Positions 1-34,771 of a stretch of 64,000 nucleotides of DNA are shown here, one piece after another. Each line of letters starts with the position of its first letter. Position 1 is the stretch's first letter. Source of the stretch: Promethearchaeota archaeon (GTDB lineage Archaea; Asgardarchaeota; Heimdallarchaeia; Hodarchaeales; Hodarchaeaceae); the NCBI GenBank assembly GCA_048938105.1, contig JBHLMN010000009.1:169270-233269 (forward strand). Reading direction: 5' to 3'. The translations under genes were made by a program, and so were the position numbers. Under the pieces are notes generated by a model. That model did no database searches. It worked only from the letters and a program-made list of their open reading frames with translations, and was not told the DNA's origin.

Positions 1-2342
1 ACCGCTTTAGGAATAGTTTCCGCCTTCAATCCGCCCGCTACTGCAATAGGAATCTTGATTGTTTCCCTTAATTTCTTTAATGTGGGAAATGGAATTTTAT
101 CAAAATCTGAACGCAATTGTTGGTCAATACCAATATGTAATCCAATGATATCGACTCCTAGTTTTTCTAAATGAATAGCTCGGTTGATAGGATCTTGGAC
201 GCCAATAAGATCTGCAAAGATTTTAACATCAAATTTCTTCCCTGCCCCAACCGCATCTTTAATAGTACTATCAGGAGCTATCCCTAAGATGCAAATAACA
301 TCAGCACCTGCTAACGCAGCCATCTCTGTTTCTAGGTAGCTAGCATCCATTGTTTTGAGGTCTGCAACAATTATTTTATGAGGAAAAAGCTCTCGTAATT
401 TTCGTACAGATTCCATACCAGTAGCTTTAATCAATGGAGTTCCTGCTTCAATCCAATCTACTCCTCCAAGTGCACTTTTTTGAGCAATTTTAAGCGCCTC
501 ATTGAGATCTCTGAGATCTAAAGCGATTTGTAGTTTTGTGCTGGTTTGAATAGGTTGAATGGATAGTTCTTTTAATTTACGCTCTGAAGGGACACCCAAT
601 TCATCCCAACCGCGGATGTGATAATATTCCTTGAGAAGATTGTGAATATTTACTTTGTGACCTTTTGCTGGCCCTTCAGGTAATGGTTCATTCAGAAATC
701 TTGGGGAGAGATTATCATGGTCTCTTGTTAGCCCTTCTCGGATATTAAATAAGCGTTCTAAATTATAAATTCTTTCACCAATTCTTTTTAATTCTTTTTC
801 ATCAATATAAAAACCAGTAGCAGTAGTTAAAAGCTTCGCATAGATATCAACCTCACACTTTAATGTTGTGAATACCGCCAATGATGTGAATTTGCACCAT
901 TCAGCTGAATCTAGTACTGCAAATACATCTTGCATTTCTTTAACCAATTCTGCTTTTCCTTCCTCAGTAAAGGGATCAACAAAATGAGGTAAGCTTAAAA
1001 CCTCTTGAATAACCGTATAACCTTTTAAATGAGTTCCCCCACTGTTTGAAGTGGCATAACTTAGTGCCATCCCTTTAATCCCTCTTGGATCATATGCAGG
1101 CATTTCAAGTCCTTTAACATGACAGGCAAATGATTGTGATCCCTTCCCAATCCGTTTAGCGGCTTTTTGTACTCCATTCGCTAATAAATCACCCTCATCC
1201 TTCCTAATAGCAATATTTTCGATTAATGATAGTAATGCTTGACCATCTCCAAATGATATAGAGTTAGATATAATTCCTTTGTCACAACACTCCATGAACC
1301 ATCCAATAGTATTCCCTGTAGAAATAGTATCTAATCCAAGTTGGTTACAAAGAGAATTGGCTTTAAAAATGGTTTCTAAATCGCTTATACCACAATTAGG
1401 ACCTAATGCCCATAAAGATTCAAATTCAGGACCGTGTGTTTCGATATCTTTATATTTCATTATACGACCGCAGGCAATAGGACACCCATGGCAAGGTTTT
1501 CTCTTTACTAAATATTCCTTGAGGGTTTCTCCTGCTATTTCACGCACATTCCCGAAAATGCCAGTACTGTAATTTCTTACAGGGAGAACCCCGTGTTTGT
1601 TGACAATATTAACTAGAATAGGCGTACCATACAATCTCATCCCTGTTCCCGTCACTGGGTGACCCTTCAAGGTTTCTATGAATTTCATTTGGATCTTTTG
1701 AAACGCATATTCGTTGACAGGCATAACTTTACCAGATCCATGAACAACAATAGCTTTGAGATTTTTTGAACCCCATACTGCTCCGATACCCCCTCTACCT
1801 GCGGTTCTTGTGTCATTGATAACACAAGCAAAATGTACTAAATTTTCTCCTGCTGGGCCTATCGCGGCAACAGAGTGATTTGTATGGATCTCTTTTAGTA
1901 TTTTAATTGTTTCATTTATTGTTTTGCCCCACAAACTCGAAGCATCTTGAATGGAAACGTTATCATCATCAACTAAGAGATATACAGGAGTTTTTGACGA
2001 ATTCTCAATAATAATCCCATCATAACCAGCACGTTTCAACTCAATTCCTAATCTACCACCGCAATGAGTGTCATTTAATGTTTTTTCAGTTAAAGGGCTT
2101 TTGAAAATCATACACCATCGAGACGAAGTTGGAGAAGTAGTTCCTGTCATTGGGCCCGTTAAGAGCACTAGTTTGTTATCGGGACTTAACGGATCTATTC
2201 CTGGTTTTAGTTCATCATAAAGGATTTTAATACCGTAACCTCTTCCTCCAAGGTATTTTTGCGCAGTATCGAGGTCTAATGGTTCCTTTTGGATTTTTTT
2301 TGTCATTATATTGATTCTTAAAATCTGTTTAGCATATGTCAG
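1..2342 (-). CDS. Fusion: W/Mo aldehyde:ferredoxin oxidoreductase (AOR family, about 2342-560) plus 3-hexulose-6-phosphate synthase domain (about 540-1); runs off the window edge
   Basis: Manual translation of the minus strand. AOR motifs YLGGRGYG, TAGRGGIGAVWGSKNLKAIVV, CHGCPIACGR, QLGLDTISTG, EMPAYDPRG and EYYHIRGWDELGVP continue in frame into HPS motifs KLQIALD, IEAGTPLIK, ADLKTMDA, HIGIDQQ and AVAGG. Absent from the ORF track, consistent with no stop inside the window. Start (CTG at 2342) is approximate. Confidence 0.9.
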   Translation of the reverse strand, partial: MTYAKQILRINIMTKKIQKEPLDLDTAQKYLGGRGYGIKILYDELKPGIDPLSPDNKLVLLTGPMTGTTSPTSSRWCMIFKSPLTEKTLNDTHCGGRLGIELKRAGYDGIIIENSSKTPVYLLVDDDNVSIQDASSLWGKTINETIKILKEIHTNHSVAAIGPAGENLVHFACVINDTRTAGRGGIGAVWGSKNLKAIVVHGSGKVMPVNEYAFQKIQMKFIETLKGHPVTGTGMRLYGTPILVNIVNKHGVLPVRNYSTGIFGNVREIAGETLKEYLVKRKPCHGCPIACGRIMKYKDIETHGPEFESLWALGPNCGISDLETIFKANSLCNQLGLDTISTGNTIGWFMECCDKGIISNSISFGDGQALLSLIENIAIRKDEGDLLANGVQKAAKRIGKGSQSFACHVKGLEMPAYDPRGIKGMALSYATSNSGGTHLKGYTVIQEVLSLPHFVDPFTEEGKAELVKEMQDVFAVLDSAEWCKFTSLAVFTTLKCEVDIYAKLLTTATGFYIDEKELKRIGERIYNLERLFNIREGLTRDHDNLSPRFLNEPLPEGPAKGHKVNIHNLLKEYYHIRGWDELGVPSERKLKELSIQPIQTSTKLQIALDLRDLNEALKIAQKSALGGVDWIEAGTPLIKATGMESVRKLRELFPHKIIVADLKTMDASYLETEMAALAGADVICILGIAPDSTIKDAVGAGKKFDVKIFADLIGVQDPINRAIHLEKLGVDIIGLHIGIDQQLRSDFDKIPFPTLKKLRETIKIPIAVAGGLKAETIPKA

Positions 2343-2584
2343 TGTTTTAACCCACCATTGATCTCCTATAATACTTACATAATTCGATAACAACGCCTCA
2401 TGAAAATCTTGTAATGATTTATAAAAGAAATTCACTCTTTCTAAAAAATTCAATAGCTCTCTCATTAATGATTAATCAATATAAGCAAGTTGAATTTTCT
2501 TAAGAAAACATCCTACCAAAATGGTAAATCCTTTATTCATTATCCAAAATGAGGTTTTTATCTTTGAAATGGTGATGAATAATT

Positions 2585-3703: not shown

Positions 3704-6019
3704 TTATGATAGATGAATAACCTCACCACTTTGAAGAGATTTGAGAGCTGCACAAGCCACTCGAAGGGCCAATATTCCATCTTGAATGGGTATTGGACTT
3801 GGGTTATCATTCAATATAGCCTTAGCGAAAGCACTAACTTGTTCAACAAAAAATGGGAGTTGATCAATTTCTTCAAAAGTAGGTTCAGATCCATCCAATT
3901 CTGTATTCTTGATTGAGGGTTGCTTGGAGGGATCAATTCTGATTGTACCATCTTCACCATAAATTATCATTCCAGTATTGCTTCCTACCTGATCTGTTAG
4001 ATCTGGTTCAGACCAAGATGCTTCAATAGTAATAAGGACTCCAGATTTTGACCGAAGACTAATTTGCACTGTATCCCAGGTTTTTATTTCGGGATAAACT
4101 CTATTTGAGCCAATTGCATAAACAGTTGTTATTGGATCAGCAGGCCCTAGAAACCATTGCACTAAATCAATATCATGGATTGCTAGATCGACAGCTATTC
4201 CTCCACTTTTTGTTTCATCCCAAAACCACTTAGAAGAGGGAGGACCACGACCCCGACGATGAGCATGAATAGAAACTATGGGGCCAAGCTCGCCTTTGTC
4301 AATTACCTTTTTTGCTGCAGAATAATGGGAAATGAACCGACAAATCATTGCAACCATTAATTTAACATTATTGTCTCGTAATATTCCTGAAATTTCCTCT
4401 AATTCATCCGGATGTAACAAGATGGGTTTTTCACATAAGATATGTTTCCCTGCCTTTGCTGCAGCAATAATATATTTCTTATGTACAAAGGTTGGAACAC
4501 AAATCGATACTGCTCTCAATTCAGGGTCTTGAAGGGCTTCTAGATAGTTTTCATAGATGTTAATCACTCCAAAGAATAAAGCTGCTCCTTGAAGGGCTAA
4601 TGGGTTTCTGGTAGCTATTGAATGTAATTCTGTCCAAGAACAAGCTGAGTATGCTGCAGCATGTATTTGGCCAATTCCCCCTAATCCAATTATACCGACT
4701 TTTAAGGGATTCATGACCTTTGGAACATCTTTAATGAGTTCCTGAATTTTTGGGGTTGTACCTGTAGAAATCATGGTTCCAATGATTCTACTCTCAATTT
4801 CTAGATCAATATTCAGAATTATCTCCATCTCTTGAAGAAATTTCGCTGCCACTAATGATAATTCAATGTAGGATAATTGATGCCAATTGGGAAGCCCAAT
4901 GATGTTTTCAGCTATTTTATCAGTATTAGGACAGTTTGGTTCGTTGTAGACTGCTTCCTCCTCCAAAAAAGGACATGTAAACGGACATTTACGTTCCCCG
5001 TATCCCTTTTGTTCTTGGAAAAGAGGAGAAGTATAGAGACCAGCGGGATAAATCAATTGAGTGATCTGAAAGTCACGGTTCAAATGGTCAGCTAATTCTT
5101 TCCCAGTCATTCCAACAATTGAAGGATCAATTTGGATTGCATACGCATGAAAAACATGTTTTCCATACTCTGGTACTTGAGGTAATCTTACTCCTGGGAT
5201 GTCTTTTAGTAGTGAATTTAAGTATAGAGAGTTTTTAATCCGCCCTTCGTTCATTTTTTCAAGTTTTTTTAACTGTTCTATCCCTATAGCTGCTTGTATC
5301 GTTGTCATTCGATAATTAAATCCTAATCTCTCATATTTATACCAAGAAGGCTCCCCATGATGTCTAACCAATCGACATTGTTTTGCAAAATCGTCATCAT
5401 CAGTAATTATAATACCACCCTCTCCTGTCATCATATTCTTTGATTCAAAGAAACTGAAACATCCCGCTTTTCCAAGACTCCCCACTTTTTTTCCTTTGTA
5501 TTCAGCCCCATGAGCCTGACATGCATCTTCAATTACTATAAGATTATGTTGTTGAGCAATTTTAATAATGGGATCCATATCTGCAGGATGACCAAAAAGA
5601 TGTACAGGAATAATAGCCTTGGTTCGATCTGTTATTTTATTTAGCAAATCAGTAGGATCCATACAAAAGGAAGTTGGATCAATATCTACAAACACAGGAA
5701 TAGCATTTTGATGTAACACAGCAGTTGCTGTGGCAACGAAGGTATATGGAGGGATTAAAACCTCATCACCAGCCCCTACTCCAGCAGCAGCTAAAGACGC
5801 ATGTAGTGCAGCTGTTCCAGAACTAACAGCTATAGCTTGCCTAATATCCATGTAGCTGGCGAAATCAGCTTCAAATTCTTCAATTTCAGTACCACTCATG
5901 AATGTCAATCGTTTATTGCGCATTACTCTTTTTACAGCAAGAATTTCTTCCCGTTCTACTTTACGATCCATTGGAAATAAATCGTGTGGTTTAATTTTAC
6001 GAGTCATAAACGCACTCAA
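3704..6019 (-). CDS. Fusion: DegT/DnrJ/EryC1/StrS PLP aminotransferase plus Gfo/Idh/MocA NAD(P) oxidoreductase
   Basis: N-half has SSGTAALH, IEDACQAHGA, FSFFESKNMMTGEGG (PLP Lys) and GFNYRM; C-half has VGIIGLGGIG, HILCEKP and DLAIHDID. Confidence 0.92.
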   Translation of the reverse strand: MSAFMTRKIKPHDLFPMDRKVEREEILAVKRVMRNKRLTFMSGTEIEEFEADFASYMDIRQAIAVSSGTAALHASLAAAGVGAGDEVLIPPYTFVATATAVLHQNAIPVFVDIDPTSFCMDPTDLLNKITDRTKAIIPVHLFGHPADMDPIIKIAQQHNLIVIEDACQAHGAEYKGKKVGSLGKAGCFSFFESKNMMTGEGGIIITDDDDFAKQCRLVRHHGEPSWYKYERLGFNYRMTTIQAAIGIEQLKKLEKMNEGRIKNSLYLNSLLKDIPGVRLPQVPEYGKHVFHAYAIQIDPSIVGMTGKELADHLNRDFQITQLIYPAGLYTSPLFQEQKGYGERKCPFTCPFLEEEAVYNEPNCPNTDKIAENIIGLPNWHQLSYIELSLVAAKFLQEMEIILNIDLEIESRIIGTMISTGTTPKIQELIKDVPKVMNPLKVGIIGLGGIGQIHAAAYSACSWTELHSIATRNPLALQGAALFFGVINIYENYLEALQDPELRAVSICVPTFVHKKYIIAAAKAGKHILCEKPILLHPDELEEISGILRDNNVKLMVAMICRFISHYSAAKKVIDKGELGPIVSIHAHRRGRGPPSSKWFWDETKSGGIAVDLAIHDIDLVQWFLGPADPITTVYAIGSNRVYPEIKTWDTVQISLRSKSGVLITIEASWSEPDLTDQVGSNTGMIIYGEDGTIRIDPSKQPSIKNTELDGSEPTFEEIDQLPFFVEQVSAFAKAILNDNPSPIPIQDGILALRVACAALKSLQSGEVIHLS

Positions 6020-31615: not shown

Positions 31616-33982
31616 CTAAAAACTTCCATGTTCAGTTCGTCTAATGATTTCATCCTGTAATTCAGGTATCAGATCAACAAAATAATCGCTATAACCAGCA
31701 ACGCGAACTATCAAATCACGATACTTCTCTGGATTCATCTGAGCTTGTCGTAAGGTATCTGCAGTTACTACATTAAATTGGATATGGTGACTATCAAGTT
31801 TAAAATGAGCTCGTATTAGATGCATCAATTTCTCAATACCTTCCTCTGTTGACAAAAGCTCTGGACTGAATTTTTGATTCAGAAGAGTCCCCCCCGTCCT
31901 TAAATGATCAATTTTTGATACAGATTTAATCACTGCAGTCGGTCCTTTTCTATCAGCTCCCTGCACAGGAGAAATGCCTTCAGAAAGAGGTTCGCCATTT
32001 TTCTTCCCATCAGGCATAGCACCAGTCATTTGTCCAAAATAGATATGAACAGTTGTGGGAAGAAGGTTGATCCTATGATGACCACCCTTCGTATTGGGAC
32101 GTCCGTCAATAGCATTAAAATAACTCTCAAAAATTCGTTTAGTAATACTATCAGCATAATCGTCATCATTACCATATCTAGGAGTATCATTCACGAAGCG
32201 GTTTCTAAGTTCCTCAAATCCAGTAAAATCTGCTTTTAGAGCTTGAAGAAGTTCCTCCATACTAATAAAAGTATTATCAAAAATATTGTATTTAATTGAG
32301 GTCAATGAATCAGTCATACTACCTAAACCCACACCTTGGATATAGGTGGTGTTATATCTAGCTCCACCCGCATTATAGTCTTTACCATTAGCTATACAAT
32401 CATCAATCAAGAGAGAGAGAAAGGGAGCGGGCATATATTTTGCATAAATCCGTTCAATGATATTATTTCCTTTAATTTTGATATCTATGAAATATCTCAA
32501 CTGTTCCTCATAAGCAGCGTAAAGTTCATCGAAGGTACTGAAAGTTGTTGGATCACCAGTTTTTATACCAATTTGTTTACCTGTTTTAGGGTCAGTACCG
32601 TTGTTAAGAGTAATTTCCAACACTTTTGGCATATTAAAATAACCAGTTAAAATATAGGATTCTGTTCCGAAGGCACCAGTCTCTACACATCCACTAGCCC
32701 CTCCTTTTCGTGCATCTTTCAATGATTTCCCTTGACGAATCATTTCTTGAATAATTGCTTCACAGTTAAAAATGGAAGGTTGACCATAACCAGTTTTAAT
32801 GATTTTCAAAGCTCGTTTAATTAAGCGGTTGGGATTCTTCTTACTTAATTGAAGCATGGAACTAGGTTGTACTAACCGCATTTCTTCGACAATATCTAGC
32901 AGTAAATATGAGAGTTCATTTGTTGCATCTGATCCATCTTCCTTCACTCCCCCAATATTAATCAGGGTAAAATCTGTATAAGTATTACTTTCTTTAGCAG
33001 TTACACCAACTTTGGGTGGGGCTGGTTGGTTATTAAATTTAACCCAAAAAGCTTGGAGTAGTTCTATGACTTTCCCTCTAGTTAATGTTCCCTCCTCCAG
33101 CTCTTTTTTATAGAAAGGATAAAGATGCTGATCTAGACGTCCAGGATTAAATGAGTCCCAGGTATTCAACTCGATAGTTACTCCCAAATGCACAAACCAA
33201 TAATATTGCAATGCTTCCCAGAGAGTTCTAGGTGCATGAGCTGGTACCCATTGGCAGATTTCAGCCATTTTTAATAATTCTATAGCACGATTACTATCTT
33301 TCTCCTCACTTGCCTGTTCCTTTAATGCTTTAGAGTAGCGATGAGCGTAAGTAATTAACGCAGTAGTAGCAATATCCATTGCTTTTAATTCTTCTCTTTT
33401 ATCAAAGGCTTCGGGGTCATTATAGAAATCTAGGTTGTTAATAGACTGTTTAATTTCTTCTTTAAGATCCAAAAATCCTTTCCTGTATATTATATCACCT
33501 AAAACTGTATGACCTGGAGCTCTTTGCTCTTGAAATTCAGTAAATACACCCGCTTCATATGCAGCTTTCCATTCTTCTGAAACTGAACCAAATATTATGT
33601 CCCTGATGGATCTTCCTTTCTCCCAAAAAGGAATGATAGTGTTTCGATATATATTTCGTGTTTCCTCAATGACATTAAATGATATTTTTTTCCTAGATTT
33701 TAATATTTCAAGGTCTCTCAGGCTATGGACACATAACTCAGGATAAGTAGGCGCAGCTTTAGGTTTTGATCCTTTCTCTCCAACTATCAGTTCCCCATAG
33801 TTAATACAGAGCTTCTTATTCTCTAAGATGTACTTGAAAGCTAATGCACGCTTTACAGGGATTGAAACGCGGTCAGCAATTTCGCTTTGATAAAATTGTG
33901 TAAGTAATTCTGCTCTTTCAGGATCTAACCAAGGTTTTGCTTCTAAGCTTTGTTCACGTAGCCGCTTTATACGCTCATTCAT
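31616..33982 (-). CDS. hypD: Glycyl radical enzyme, trans-4-hydroxy-L-proline dehydratase
   Basis: RAPGH, NTWDSF, ESNTYTDF, SGCVE, LPTT and RVAGYS match HypD signature residues. Confidence 0.88.
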   Translation of the reverse strand: MNERIKRLREQSLEAKPWLDPERAELLTQFYQSEIADRVSIPVKRALAFKYILENKKLCINYGELIVGEKGSKPKAAPTYPELCVHSLRDLEILKSRKKISFNVIEETRNIYRNTIIPFWEKGRSIRDIIFGSVSEEWKAAYEAGVFTEFQEQRAPGHTVLGDIIYRKGFLDLKEEIKQSINNLDFYNDPEAFDKREELKAMDIATTALITYAHRYSKALKEQASEEKDSNRAIELLKMAEICQWVPAHAPRTLWEALQYYWFVHLGVTIELNTWDSFNPGRLDQHLYPFYKKELEEGTLTRGKVIELLQAFWVKFNNQPAPPKVGVTAKESNTYTDFTLINIGGVKEDGSDATNELSYLLLDIVEEMRLVQPSSMLQLSKKNPNRLIKRALKIIKTGYGQPSIFNCEAIIQEMIRQGKSLKDARKGGASGCVETGAFGTESYILTGYFNMPKVLEITLNNGTDPKTGKQIGIKTGDPTTFSTFDELYAAYEEQLRYFIDIKIKGNNIIERIYAKYMPAPFLSLLIDDCIANGKDYNAGGARYNTTYIQGVGLGSMTDSLTSIKYNIFDNTFISMEELLQALKADFTGFEELRNRFVNDTPRYGNDDDYADSITKRIFESYFNAIDGRPNTKGGHHRINLLPTTVHIYFGQMTGAMPDGKKNGEPLSEGISPVQGADRKGPTAVIKSVSKIDHLRTGGTLLNQKFSPELLSTEEGIEKLMHLIRAHFKLDSHHIQFNVVTADTLRQAQMNPEKYRDLIVRVAGYSDYFVDLIPELQDEIIRRTEHGSF

Positions 33983-33985
33983 TGA

Positions 33986-34771
33986 TTAACCTCCAAGTTT
34001 AGTTGTGAATCCAAGACCTCTAAATGTATCTAATAATTGATCCAACCTATCTGGCGATGGTGGGTCAAGATCAAGCATTTTATTTTCGCGATTCAATTTT
34101 TTGTACTTGCTGTAACCAATTTTGTGAAACGGAAGAAGATTAATTTCTCTTACAGTTTCAAGTTTGGATATCCATTCAGCCAATTGGTTAATATTTTCTT
34201 CTGTTTCTGTAATTCCAGTAATAACAGGGAAGCGAATAATTATTTTCTTTTCCTCTTTATCAAGTTTCTTCAGATTAGAGAGGATGGGTAAAACTGATAC
34301 TCCAGTATATTTCAGATGTTTTTTATCATCAATCATCTTAAGATCATATAAAAAAAGATCTACTTTATCCTTAACTTTTTTAACAATCTCCCAGGATGCA
34401 TATCCACATGTATCGAGTGTTGTAGTAAGTTCCCTCTCCTGACATGCAATTAATAAGCAATCCAAAAAGTCAGGTTGCATCAAAGGTTCTCCACCAGAAA
34501 AAGTTACTCCACCACTAGATTCATCGTAAAAAATCAAATCCTTTTCTATTTCAGCTATAACCTCTTCAACGCTTATCTCTCGTCCAATAATCTCCTTTTG
34601 TGTATTCTGATTATTCCAAATTATCTCTGGTTTTGGATTTTGACCTTCTGGATTATGACACCACCAGCAATTTAATGGGCAGCCCTTCAAAAAAACAGTT
34701 GTACGAATACCAGGGCCATCATGGAGAGCATATTTCTTGATGTCAAAAATAACTCCTTTCGTTTCCATCAC
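33986..34771 (-). CDS. Glycyl-radical enzyme activase (radical SAM), short form without ferredoxin insert
   Basis: HDGPGIRTTVFLKGCPLNCWWCHNPE, GVTFSGGEP and LLPFH. Confidence 0.93.
   Translation of the reverse strand: MMETKGVIFDIKKYALHDGPGIRTTVFLKGCPLNCWWCHNPEGQNPKPEIIWNNQNTQKEIIGREISVEEVIAEIEKDLIFYDESSGGVTFSGGEPLMQPDFLDCLLIACQERELTTTLDTCGYASWEIVKKVKDKVDLFLYDLKMIDDKKHLKYTGVSVLPILSNLKKLDKEEKKIIIRFPVITGITETEENINQLAEWISKLETVREINLLPFHKIGYSKYKKLNRENKMLDLDPPSPDRLDQLLDTFRGLGFTTKLGG

Follow-up and report, generated by a model that had tools for sequence, protein, structure and literature searches.

An archaeal fusion of aldehyde:ferredoxin oxidoreductase with 3-hexulose-6-phosphate synthase, predicted to couple pentose synthesis to formaldehyde oxidation

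Background

What becomes of the formaldehyde that archaea release when they make their pentoses by the reverse ribulose monophosphate (RuMP) pathway? One formaldehyde is set free for each pentose, and in methanogens its sink is explained by the Fae-HPS fusion protein, of which HPS (3-hexulose-6-phosphate synthase) is a part; for archaea without tetrahydromethanopterin (H4MPT) the sink has so far been guesswork in metabolic reconstructions. Here we describe a gene at the left end of a 64,000-nt stretch of the genome of a Promethearchaeota archaeon of the Hodarchaeales (GenBank assembly GCA_048938105.1, contig JBHLMN010000009.1, positions 169,270 to 233,269; G000:C53:169270-233269 in our numbering, hereafter the window), which encodes an aldehyde:ferredoxin oxidoreductase (AOR) fused in frame to HPS and which probably offers a concrete answer. 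The genome assembly comprises 5.85 Mb in 65 contigs and is 99% complete, with an estimated contamination of 7%.

Papers on metagenome-assembled genomes (MAGs) of Asgard archaea, Brockarchaeota and other lineages have proposed that separate AORs oxidise the formaldehyde of the RuMP pathway (PMC11291895; PMC8065059), and in a reconstruction for Asgard archaea the reverse RuMP pathway is presented as a source of reducing power (PMC10307638). A description of an AOR-HPS fusion was not found in the full-text literature searched, which did not cover subscription journals and supplements.

Results

A complete AOR and a complete HPS are encoded in a single frame

The gene lies on the minus strand in an open frame (window 3..2465 in a listing of open reading frames (ORFs) with open ends) that crosses the left window edge. 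Beyond the edge the genome adds 36 codons and a stop, so that the gene ends 109 nt to the left of position 1. The residue numbers used below follow the 857-residue frame; the product translated from the CTG start proposed below has about 816 residues.

The initial annotation had read this region as a complete AOR, with pterin and 4Fe-4S motifs, that continues through a short linker into an HPS barrel with intact motifs, and the analysis bore this out. Pfam recognised AFOR_N, AFOR_C and, from residue 643, an OMPdecase/HUMPS match in one frame (Table 1), and the complete HPS domain scored 218.3 bits on TIGR03128 (cut-off 200) over the full profile, positions 1-205. The linker that had been quoted, ...KLKELSIQPIQTSTK, lies at residues 630-644, and no in-frame stop or frameshift is present at the junction near window 534-557. 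By alignment, C325, C328, C332 and C524 correspond to Cys288, Cys291, Cys295 and Cys494 of the AOR of Pyrococcus furiosus (1aor), as do the pterin motifs of the DxxGL(C/D) type, LGLDTIS and DSAEWC, to their counterparts in the same chain. On the HPS side, an alignment with the solved HPS chains 9lj9, 3ajx and 3f4w places D650, E673, D702, K704, D707, H777 and G811-G812 at equivalent positions. The cysteine ligands, the equivalents of Glu313 and His448 of 1aor, the pterin motifs and the HPS catalytic set are invariant in an alignment of 44 fusions, which spans 50-85% identity to the window protein. Both halves are thus complete and keep their invariant catalytic and cofactor residues, and a tungsten (W) or molybdenum (Mo) bis-pterin cofactor is predicted for the AOR half.

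It had also been asked whether a PHI or an RraA domain might follow at the C-terminus, in the sequence to the left of the window; neither is present, and the protein ends 6 residues after the last helix of the HPS barrel. The profile for HPS-PHI fusions (NF041755) gave 177.6 bits against a cut-off of 500, without a C-terminal SIS/PHI domain on the chain, and that for Fae-HPS (NF009833) gave 113 bits against a cut-off of 274 through the HPS half only, with no Fae domain in the protein. An AlphaFold2 model of the chain from M54 reached a mean pLDDT of 90.5 and a pTM of 0.89, and the latter, taken over the whole chain, hints indirectly at a defined arrangement of the domains. Docking of the AOR part against the HPS part returned a score of 0.00, which carries no weight either way.

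The junction recurs in other samples and the fusion is widespread in archaea

The initial annotation had pointed to positions 540-600 as the place where reads should bridge the two halves, and two contigs from other samples do so across the junction at about 534-557. One, of 207 nt and from a second sample, covers window 405-611 with zero differences; the other, of 913 nt, stems from another study's mangrove metagenome and spans window 343-1255, from which it differs by 61 substitutions without any gap.

A search of sequence clusters restricted to residues 560-857 yielded more than 110 clusters at 90% identity that are 800-840 residues long and carry AFOR_N, AFOR_C and OMPdecase, the very architecture for which a search had been suggested, and they belong to several archaeal phyla. 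The cluster names comprise Hodarchaeales/Heimdallarchaeota, Promethearchaeota, Thorarchaeota, Thermoplasmata, Methanomethylicaceae, Nezhaarchaeales and Thermoprotei, and the contigs that carry some of them are 1.3 to 4.9 Mb long. Among named homologues, those closest to the window protein are from MAGs of Hodarchaeales and Heimdallarchaeota. Matches spanning the junction were present in about 16 of 300 sampled Asgard genomes; elsewhere in this sample HPS was found in ORFs of about 440-460 or about 230 residues.

Public annotation names one half of the protein or truncates it, and for this reason pathway inference misses the fusion. Its members appear in databases as 3-hexulose-6-phosphate synthase, aldehyde ferredoxin oxidoreductase or orotidine 5'-phosphate decarboxylase. 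A seemingly stand-alone HPS (P0305) from a Verstraetearchaeota MAG (GCA_029887765.1) proved to be an intact AOR-HPS of 829 residues (L024:2207-4696, plus strand), of which the deposited gene call contains the last 231 residues only, as a 'DUF561 domain-containing protein', and leaves the AOR part unannotated.

In a variant of the fusion, six proteins of about 990 residues (P0037-P0042), AOR and HPS are separated by a further OMPdecase-like barrel, which is degenerate and about 190 residues long. In another genome (G240, L022:3873-10330), 6.4 kb interrupts the fusion gene inside the HPS barrel, at residues 711/722; because the block carries genes for aIF2-gamma and a P-type ATPase, besides a PIN-domain protein and a 604-residue ORF without Pfam match, the interruption is more likely a rearrangement or a scaffolding error than a mobile element.

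The fusion has a single origin

Placement among the AOR, FOR and WOR groups, which had been left to be settled, put the AOR half nearest to AOR sensu stricto and not to formaldehyde:ferredoxin oxidoreductase (FOR). The solved AOR chains gave the highest scores (1aor 542 bits, 9g7j 531, 9mqx 530 and 8c0z 455), with FOR (1b25) at 360 bits, WOR5 at 230, BamB at 188 and the GAPOR profile NF040818 at 52 bits. Against 1.84 billion representative sequences, fusion representatives reached 672 and 649 bits, as compared with 552 bits for the highest-scoring stand-alone AOR.

When trees were built from the AOR part, the 31 fusions came together in one clade, with an SH-aLRT support of 99 in IQ-TREE and a support of 94 in FastTree. 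A divergent protein of 826 residues (P0221) and the 990-residue forms are among the 31, and one further protein, truncated at a contig end, falls in the same clade. The genome of the window harbours 13 AOR-family genes including the fusion; the other 12 are scattered over several AOR subclades, and none of these paralogues falls inside the fusion clade. Behind the fourth cysteine ligand the members of this clade share a signature, which, in an alignment of the 31 fusions with 66 stand-alone AORs and the 12 paralogues, is absent from most of the stand-alone AORs and from all 12 paralogues. We concluded that the fusion has one origin.

The best solved match of the HPS half was the Thermococcales-type HPS-PHI 9lj9 (217 bits), with 3ajx at 144 bits, and in the HPS tree the fusion domains, except that of P0221, fell within one clade of 38. 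The additional members of that clade are fragments, miscalled fusions, the middle barrels of the 990-residue forms and two short proteins, namely P0290, a stand-alone gene on a 2.8-kb contig, and P0296. Among the matches more than 56% identical to the HPS domain of the fusion no stand-alone HPS was found, all being fragments, and those above 70% end at contig ends. No close split form of the fusion clade was found, the short matches being fragments or miscalled genes, and no HPS gene lies next to the nearest stand-alone AORs.

The searched genomes with the fusion lack Fae and any other HPS above the cut-off

On TIGR03128 the fusion is the only HPS in the genome of the window, and no Fae was found there. 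Fae was likewise absent from all 20 genomes of the genus, from all 13 sampled genomes of the class, and from five fusion-bearing Asgard genomes of three other genera, in which, too, no HPS besides the fusion exceeds the cut-off. Of 100 sampled Asgard genomes 66 contain Fae, for the most part within ORFs some 400 residues long, which is the length of the Fae-HPS fusion. Among the Asgard genomes searched, therefore, the fusion occurs only in those without Fae.

A canonical single-domain PHI is encoded 66 kb from the fusion (G000:C53:102716-103243; 164 bits against a cut-off of 160). The genome also encodes a protein of the TAL/FSA type, while the transketolase N-domain had no match in it.

A Fae-type HPS has been replaced at the locus

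The gene that follows the fusion overlaps its stop codon (ATGA) and encodes a MoaD/ThiS/SAMP1-like protein of 93 residues ending in GG, which probably serves pterin-cofactor synthesis. A MoaD gene adjoins the fusion in 9 of the 11 loci examined, from Asgard archaea to Nezhaarchaeales and Methanomethylicaceae. A phosphofructokinase gene also lies near the fusion locus. Close by is a gene for a PHI-like protein of 389 residues with two SIS domains (L010:10436-11605, plus strand), which ends 396 nt to the left of the window; with 131 bits it stayed under the TIGR03127 cut-off of 160, and its single SIS domains gave 76 and 58 bits. In the genus this double-SIS gene adjoins the HPS gene, in either form, in all 18 genomes where it was found, usually in convergent orientation and once upstream on the same strand. 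A paralogue of it, 47% identical, is encoded elsewhere in the genome (G000:C48:12713-13828).

The two forms of HPS are distributed over the genus as follows: in 11 of the 20 genomes no HPS other than the fusion exceeds the cut-off, 7 carry a stand-alone HPS instead, and the remaining 2, which are incomplete, show neither form. The stand-alone HPS, of about 205 residues, occupies the same site as the fusion, convergent to the same double-SIS gene. With the HPS half of the fusion it shares no more than 30-34% identity, and it matches best the HPS half of Fae-HPS, at 190-195 bits on NF009833. One genome (G291) has both in a row: AOR-HPS, MoaD, stand-alone HPS and the double-SIS gene. The stand-alone HPS between MoaD and the double-SIS gene (L023:3976-4584, plus strand) scores 139 bits and has lost the GG phosphate loop, part of HxGID and the third Asp of DxKxxD. 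We read the sequences as indicating that a cassette of AOR-HPS and MoaD was inserted beside a resident HPS, which then decayed and was lost, and this genome looks like a gene displacement caught midway.

A CTG codon is the proposed start of the gene

The relatives of the window protein begin with M-[TA]-Y-A-K-Q-I-L-R, and the codon corresponding to this methionine is here the CTG at window 2342-2340. In congeners the site is occupied by TTG, GTG or ATG, and the frame upstream is closed by stops; among the genomes compared, the upstream frame is open in this one alone, back to ATG 2465. Those congeners that start with TTG retain the Shine-Dalgarno-like box of Table 1 as GTGGG or GGTGG, and one congener has a box similar to the TATA-like TTTTATAAA. 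We took 2342 as the start because the relatives start there, because GGTGGG lies 8 nt upstream, and because TTTTATAAA sits downstream of ATG 2465, which for the last reason is probably not a start. ATG 2465 was rejected also since its equivalents in the relatives lie in a stop-closed frame, and M54 was rejected since a start there would remove the first conserved strand of AFOR_N. The right-hand end at 2342 given by the initial annotation is thus the codon where all relatives start.

Table 1. Features of the AOR-HPS fusion gene and of its upstream region in the window
Feature	Window position	Strand	Remarks
TATA-like box TTTTATAAA	2418..2426	-	about 80 nt upstream of the start; putative, read from the sequence
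Shine-Dalgarno-like box GGTGGG	2351..2356	-	8 nt upstream of CTG; putative, read from the sequence
AOR-HPS fusion coding sequence, part within the window	1..2342	-	CTG at 2342-2340; last 36 codons and stop across and left of position 1
AFOR_N	1737..2327	-	residues 47-243; PF02730, 1.9e-77, profile positions 2-198 of 199
AFOR_C (domains 2 and 3)	558..1691	-	residues 259-636; PF01314, 1.6e-141, profile positions 3-385 of 385
CxxCxxxC, as CHGCPIAC	1470..1493	-	residues 325-332; three of the four 4Fe-4S Cys ligands
Catalytic Glu motif PEFES	1416-1430	-	Glu313 of 1aor by alignment
Catalytic His motif GGTHLK	1023-1040	-	His448 of 1aor by alignment
Fourth 4Fe-4S Cys	894-896	-	residue 524; alignment to 1aor
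Signature of the fusion clade	807..887	-	residues 527-553; insert of about 6 residues (T..A.F.TL..E), then LLTTATGFY, after the fourth Cys
Linker QPIQTSTK	534..557	-	residues 637-644; 7-8 residues long in 44 of 44 aligned fusions
HPS barrel, first 177 of 213 residues	1..533	-	LQIALD, IEAGTP, ADLKTMD, LHIGIDQQ, AVAGGL; remainder left of the window

Other genes of the window

The only PFL-like gene, considered as a formate source, was rejected, being that of a trans-4-hydroxy-L-proline dehydratase: the glycyl-radical enzyme HypD at window 31616-34771 (minus strand), with 1283 bits on NF043068 (cut-off 1100). The gene of a radical-SAM activase lies directly upstream, so that an Asgard genome carries the pair of anaerobic hydroxyproline degradation; pairs of HypD and its activase come mostly from gut and sediment bacteria. 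Window 3704-6019 (minus strand) encodes another in-frame fusion, of 771 residues, between a DegT/DnrJ/EryC1 sugar aminotransferase and a Gfo/Idh/MocA oxidoreductase.

Discussion

Proposed function of the fusion

We consider it fairly probable, judging from the sequences, that AOR-HPS couples a step of the reverse RuMP pathway to the ferredoxin-dependent oxidation of formaldehyde to formate. PHI, for which the double-SIS neighbour and the canonical protein 66 kb away are both candidates, would convert fructose-6-phosphate to hexulose-6-phosphate, and the C-terminal HPS barrel would cleave the latter to ribulose-5-phosphate and formaldehyde. The N-terminal AOR module of the same chain, with its predicted W/Mo pterin and 4Fe-4S cluster, would then oxidise formaldehyde to formate and pass two electrons to ferredoxin, so that on balance a hexose phosphate would yield a pentose phosphate, formate and 2 reduced ferredoxins. 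The condensation catalysed by HPS is strongly favoured and its reversal requires a formaldehyde sink, and the oxidation of aldehydes by ferredoxin is exergonic. The AOR module would be an immediate sink that holds free formaldehyde low and pulls the unfavourable cleavage, in the role that Fae and H4MPT fill in the Fae-HPS of methanogens. The coupled step would be a ferredoxin-linked counterpart of the oxidative pentose-phosphate step, and it would be energy-neutral or better because the electrons stay as reduced ferredoxin.

That formaldehyde is the substrate of the AOR, that the flux runs in this direction and that proximity or channelling plays a part are points that we infer. A tethered oxidiser would fit the observation that every searched genome with the fusion lacks Fae, and also the fact that the fusion took the place of an HPS of the lineage found in Fae-HPS. 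The Fae-independent handling of formaldehyde that the initial annotation had put forward thus gains comparative support from three sides: the fusion is the only HPS, Fae is absent, and a Fae-type HPS was replaced in situ.

Several observations weigh against this proposal. The AOR half is by sequence nearest to the broad-specificity AOR of P. furiosus and not to a dedicated formaldehyde enzyme; that AOR accepts formaldehyde among many aldehydes. The association with the absence of Fae follows lineages, and related genomes are not independent of each other. A 6-phosphogluconate dehydrogenase (428 bits) is encoded in the genome, and because of it the RuMP route need not be the sole or an essential source of pentoses. 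Finally, a formate dehydrogenase alpha subunit of the FdhA type, FocA, formate-tetrahydrofolate ligase (FTHFS) and pyruvate formate-lyase were not found in the genome, so that none of these could account for the fate of the predicted formate.

Alternative explanations

The resemblance of the AOR half to a broad-specificity AOR speaks for an alternative that we regard as rather unlikely, namely that nothing is handed over between the two halves. The fusion would then serve co-expression or a fixed stoichiometry, or AOR and HPS would be parallel sinks for external formaldehyde, or the AOR would act on other aldehydes altogether; the RuMP pathway is indeed widely used in formaldehyde detoxification (PMC8065059). 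Such a loose association is hard to square with a fusion that arose once and has been kept across phyla with a short linker of fixed length and an AOR signature confined to the clade, and of which no close split form was found. The fusion is moreover the sole HPS, with a distribution complementary to that of Fae, and the pTM of 0.89 suggests a defined arrangement of its domains.

A second alternative is that the enzyme runs the other way: the AOR would reduce formate to formaldehyde with reduced ferredoxin of low potential and HPS would at once condense the formaldehyde with ribulose-5-phosphate. AOR-family enzymes are known to be reversible, acetogens reducing acids with them, and an aldehyde producer fused to a strongly favoured consumer would make acid reduction feasible, since the favourable condensation would pull the unfavourable reduction. 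The architecture and its conservation fit both directions, and the phosphofructokinase and PHI-like genes nearby fit this one. We nevertheless think it improbable, given that neither FocA nor an FdhA-type formate dehydrogenase nor pyruvate formate-lyase was found in the genome, that the fusion replaces an HPS of the Fae-HPS lineage, which is tied to archaeal pentose synthesis, and that it is spread in lineages described as heterotrophic fermenters without the Wood-Ljungdahl pathway (PMC10307638). Slightly less probable still is the stronger form of this idea, in which the fusion would be a ferredoxin-driven formate-fixing enzyme: its tungsten site would reduce formate, the formaldehyde would be retained within the protein for condensation by the attached HPS, and formate would gain an ATP-free entry into sugar phosphates on a single polypeptide.

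An assembly chimera, a frameshift artefact or a pseudogene, to which a 65-contig assembly with 7% estimated contamination and a CTG at the homologous start codon might point, is excluded as far as sequence can show by the two independent contigs across the junction, by the existence of over 100 homologous clusters, of which some come from contigs 1-5 Mb long, and by the invariance of catalytic residues in both halves.

If the coupling of HPS cleavage to formaldehyde oxidation holds, anaerobic archaea gain a ferredoxin-linked counterpart of the oxidative pentose-phosphate step. Models of the archaeal ancestor of eukaryotes draw on the central carbon metabolism of Hodarchaeales-like Asgard archaea, among which the fusion occurs. 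If the reverse direction works, the protein would be relevant to the design of synthetic formate or formaldehyde assimilation.

Comparison with known systems

AOR-HPS is a third type of HPS fusion and a predicted functional parallel to Fae-HPS. Fae-HPS (NF009833), present in methanogens and other archaea that use H4MPT, the common form in Asgard archaea and the one whose HPS lineage the AOR-HPS cassette has replaced in the genus, likewise joins HPS to an immediate taker of formaldehyde and is thought to serve ribulose-5-phosphate synthesis by the reverse RuMP pathway. Its partner, however, is the N-terminal, cofactor-free lyase Fae, which joins formaldehyde to H4MPT without a gain of electrons, whereas the partner in AOR-HPS is a pterin and 4Fe-4S oxidoreductase of about 590 residues, predicted to yield formate and reduced ferredoxin.

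The HPS-PHI of Thermococcales (NF041755; 9lj9) has the same type of barrel, is the best solved match of the HPS half (217 bits) and belongs to the same pathway. There the C-terminal partner, PHI, is the next enzyme of the pathway and the fate of formaldehyde is left open; in AOR-HPS, by contrast, PHI is a separate gene and the fused partner is predicted to handle the by-product. A further archaeal fusion, HPS-RraA-like (NF005442), has an HPS half 45-50% identical to that of AOR-HPS, but its C-terminal partner is RraA/aldolase-like and it has no redox module.

Among oxidoreductases, the AOR of P. furiosus (1aor; also 9g7j, 9mqx and 8c0z) is the solved structure that the N-terminal 590 residues match best, with aligned cofactor ligands and Glu/His pair, and a stand-alone AOR relative is adjoined by a MoaD-like gene as the fusion is. 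AORs of the 1aor type are stand-alone enzymes or AorABC complexes that act on amino-acid-derived and other aldehydes, whereas the fusion branches apart from them, has an insert peculiar to it behind the fourth cysteine and carries an attached HPS barrel. The FOR of Pyrococcus and Thermococcus (1b25) is a member of this superfamily, with a name that evokes the chemistry proposed here, yet it is clearly more distant (360 against 542 bits), and AOR-HPS lies outside the FOR clade.

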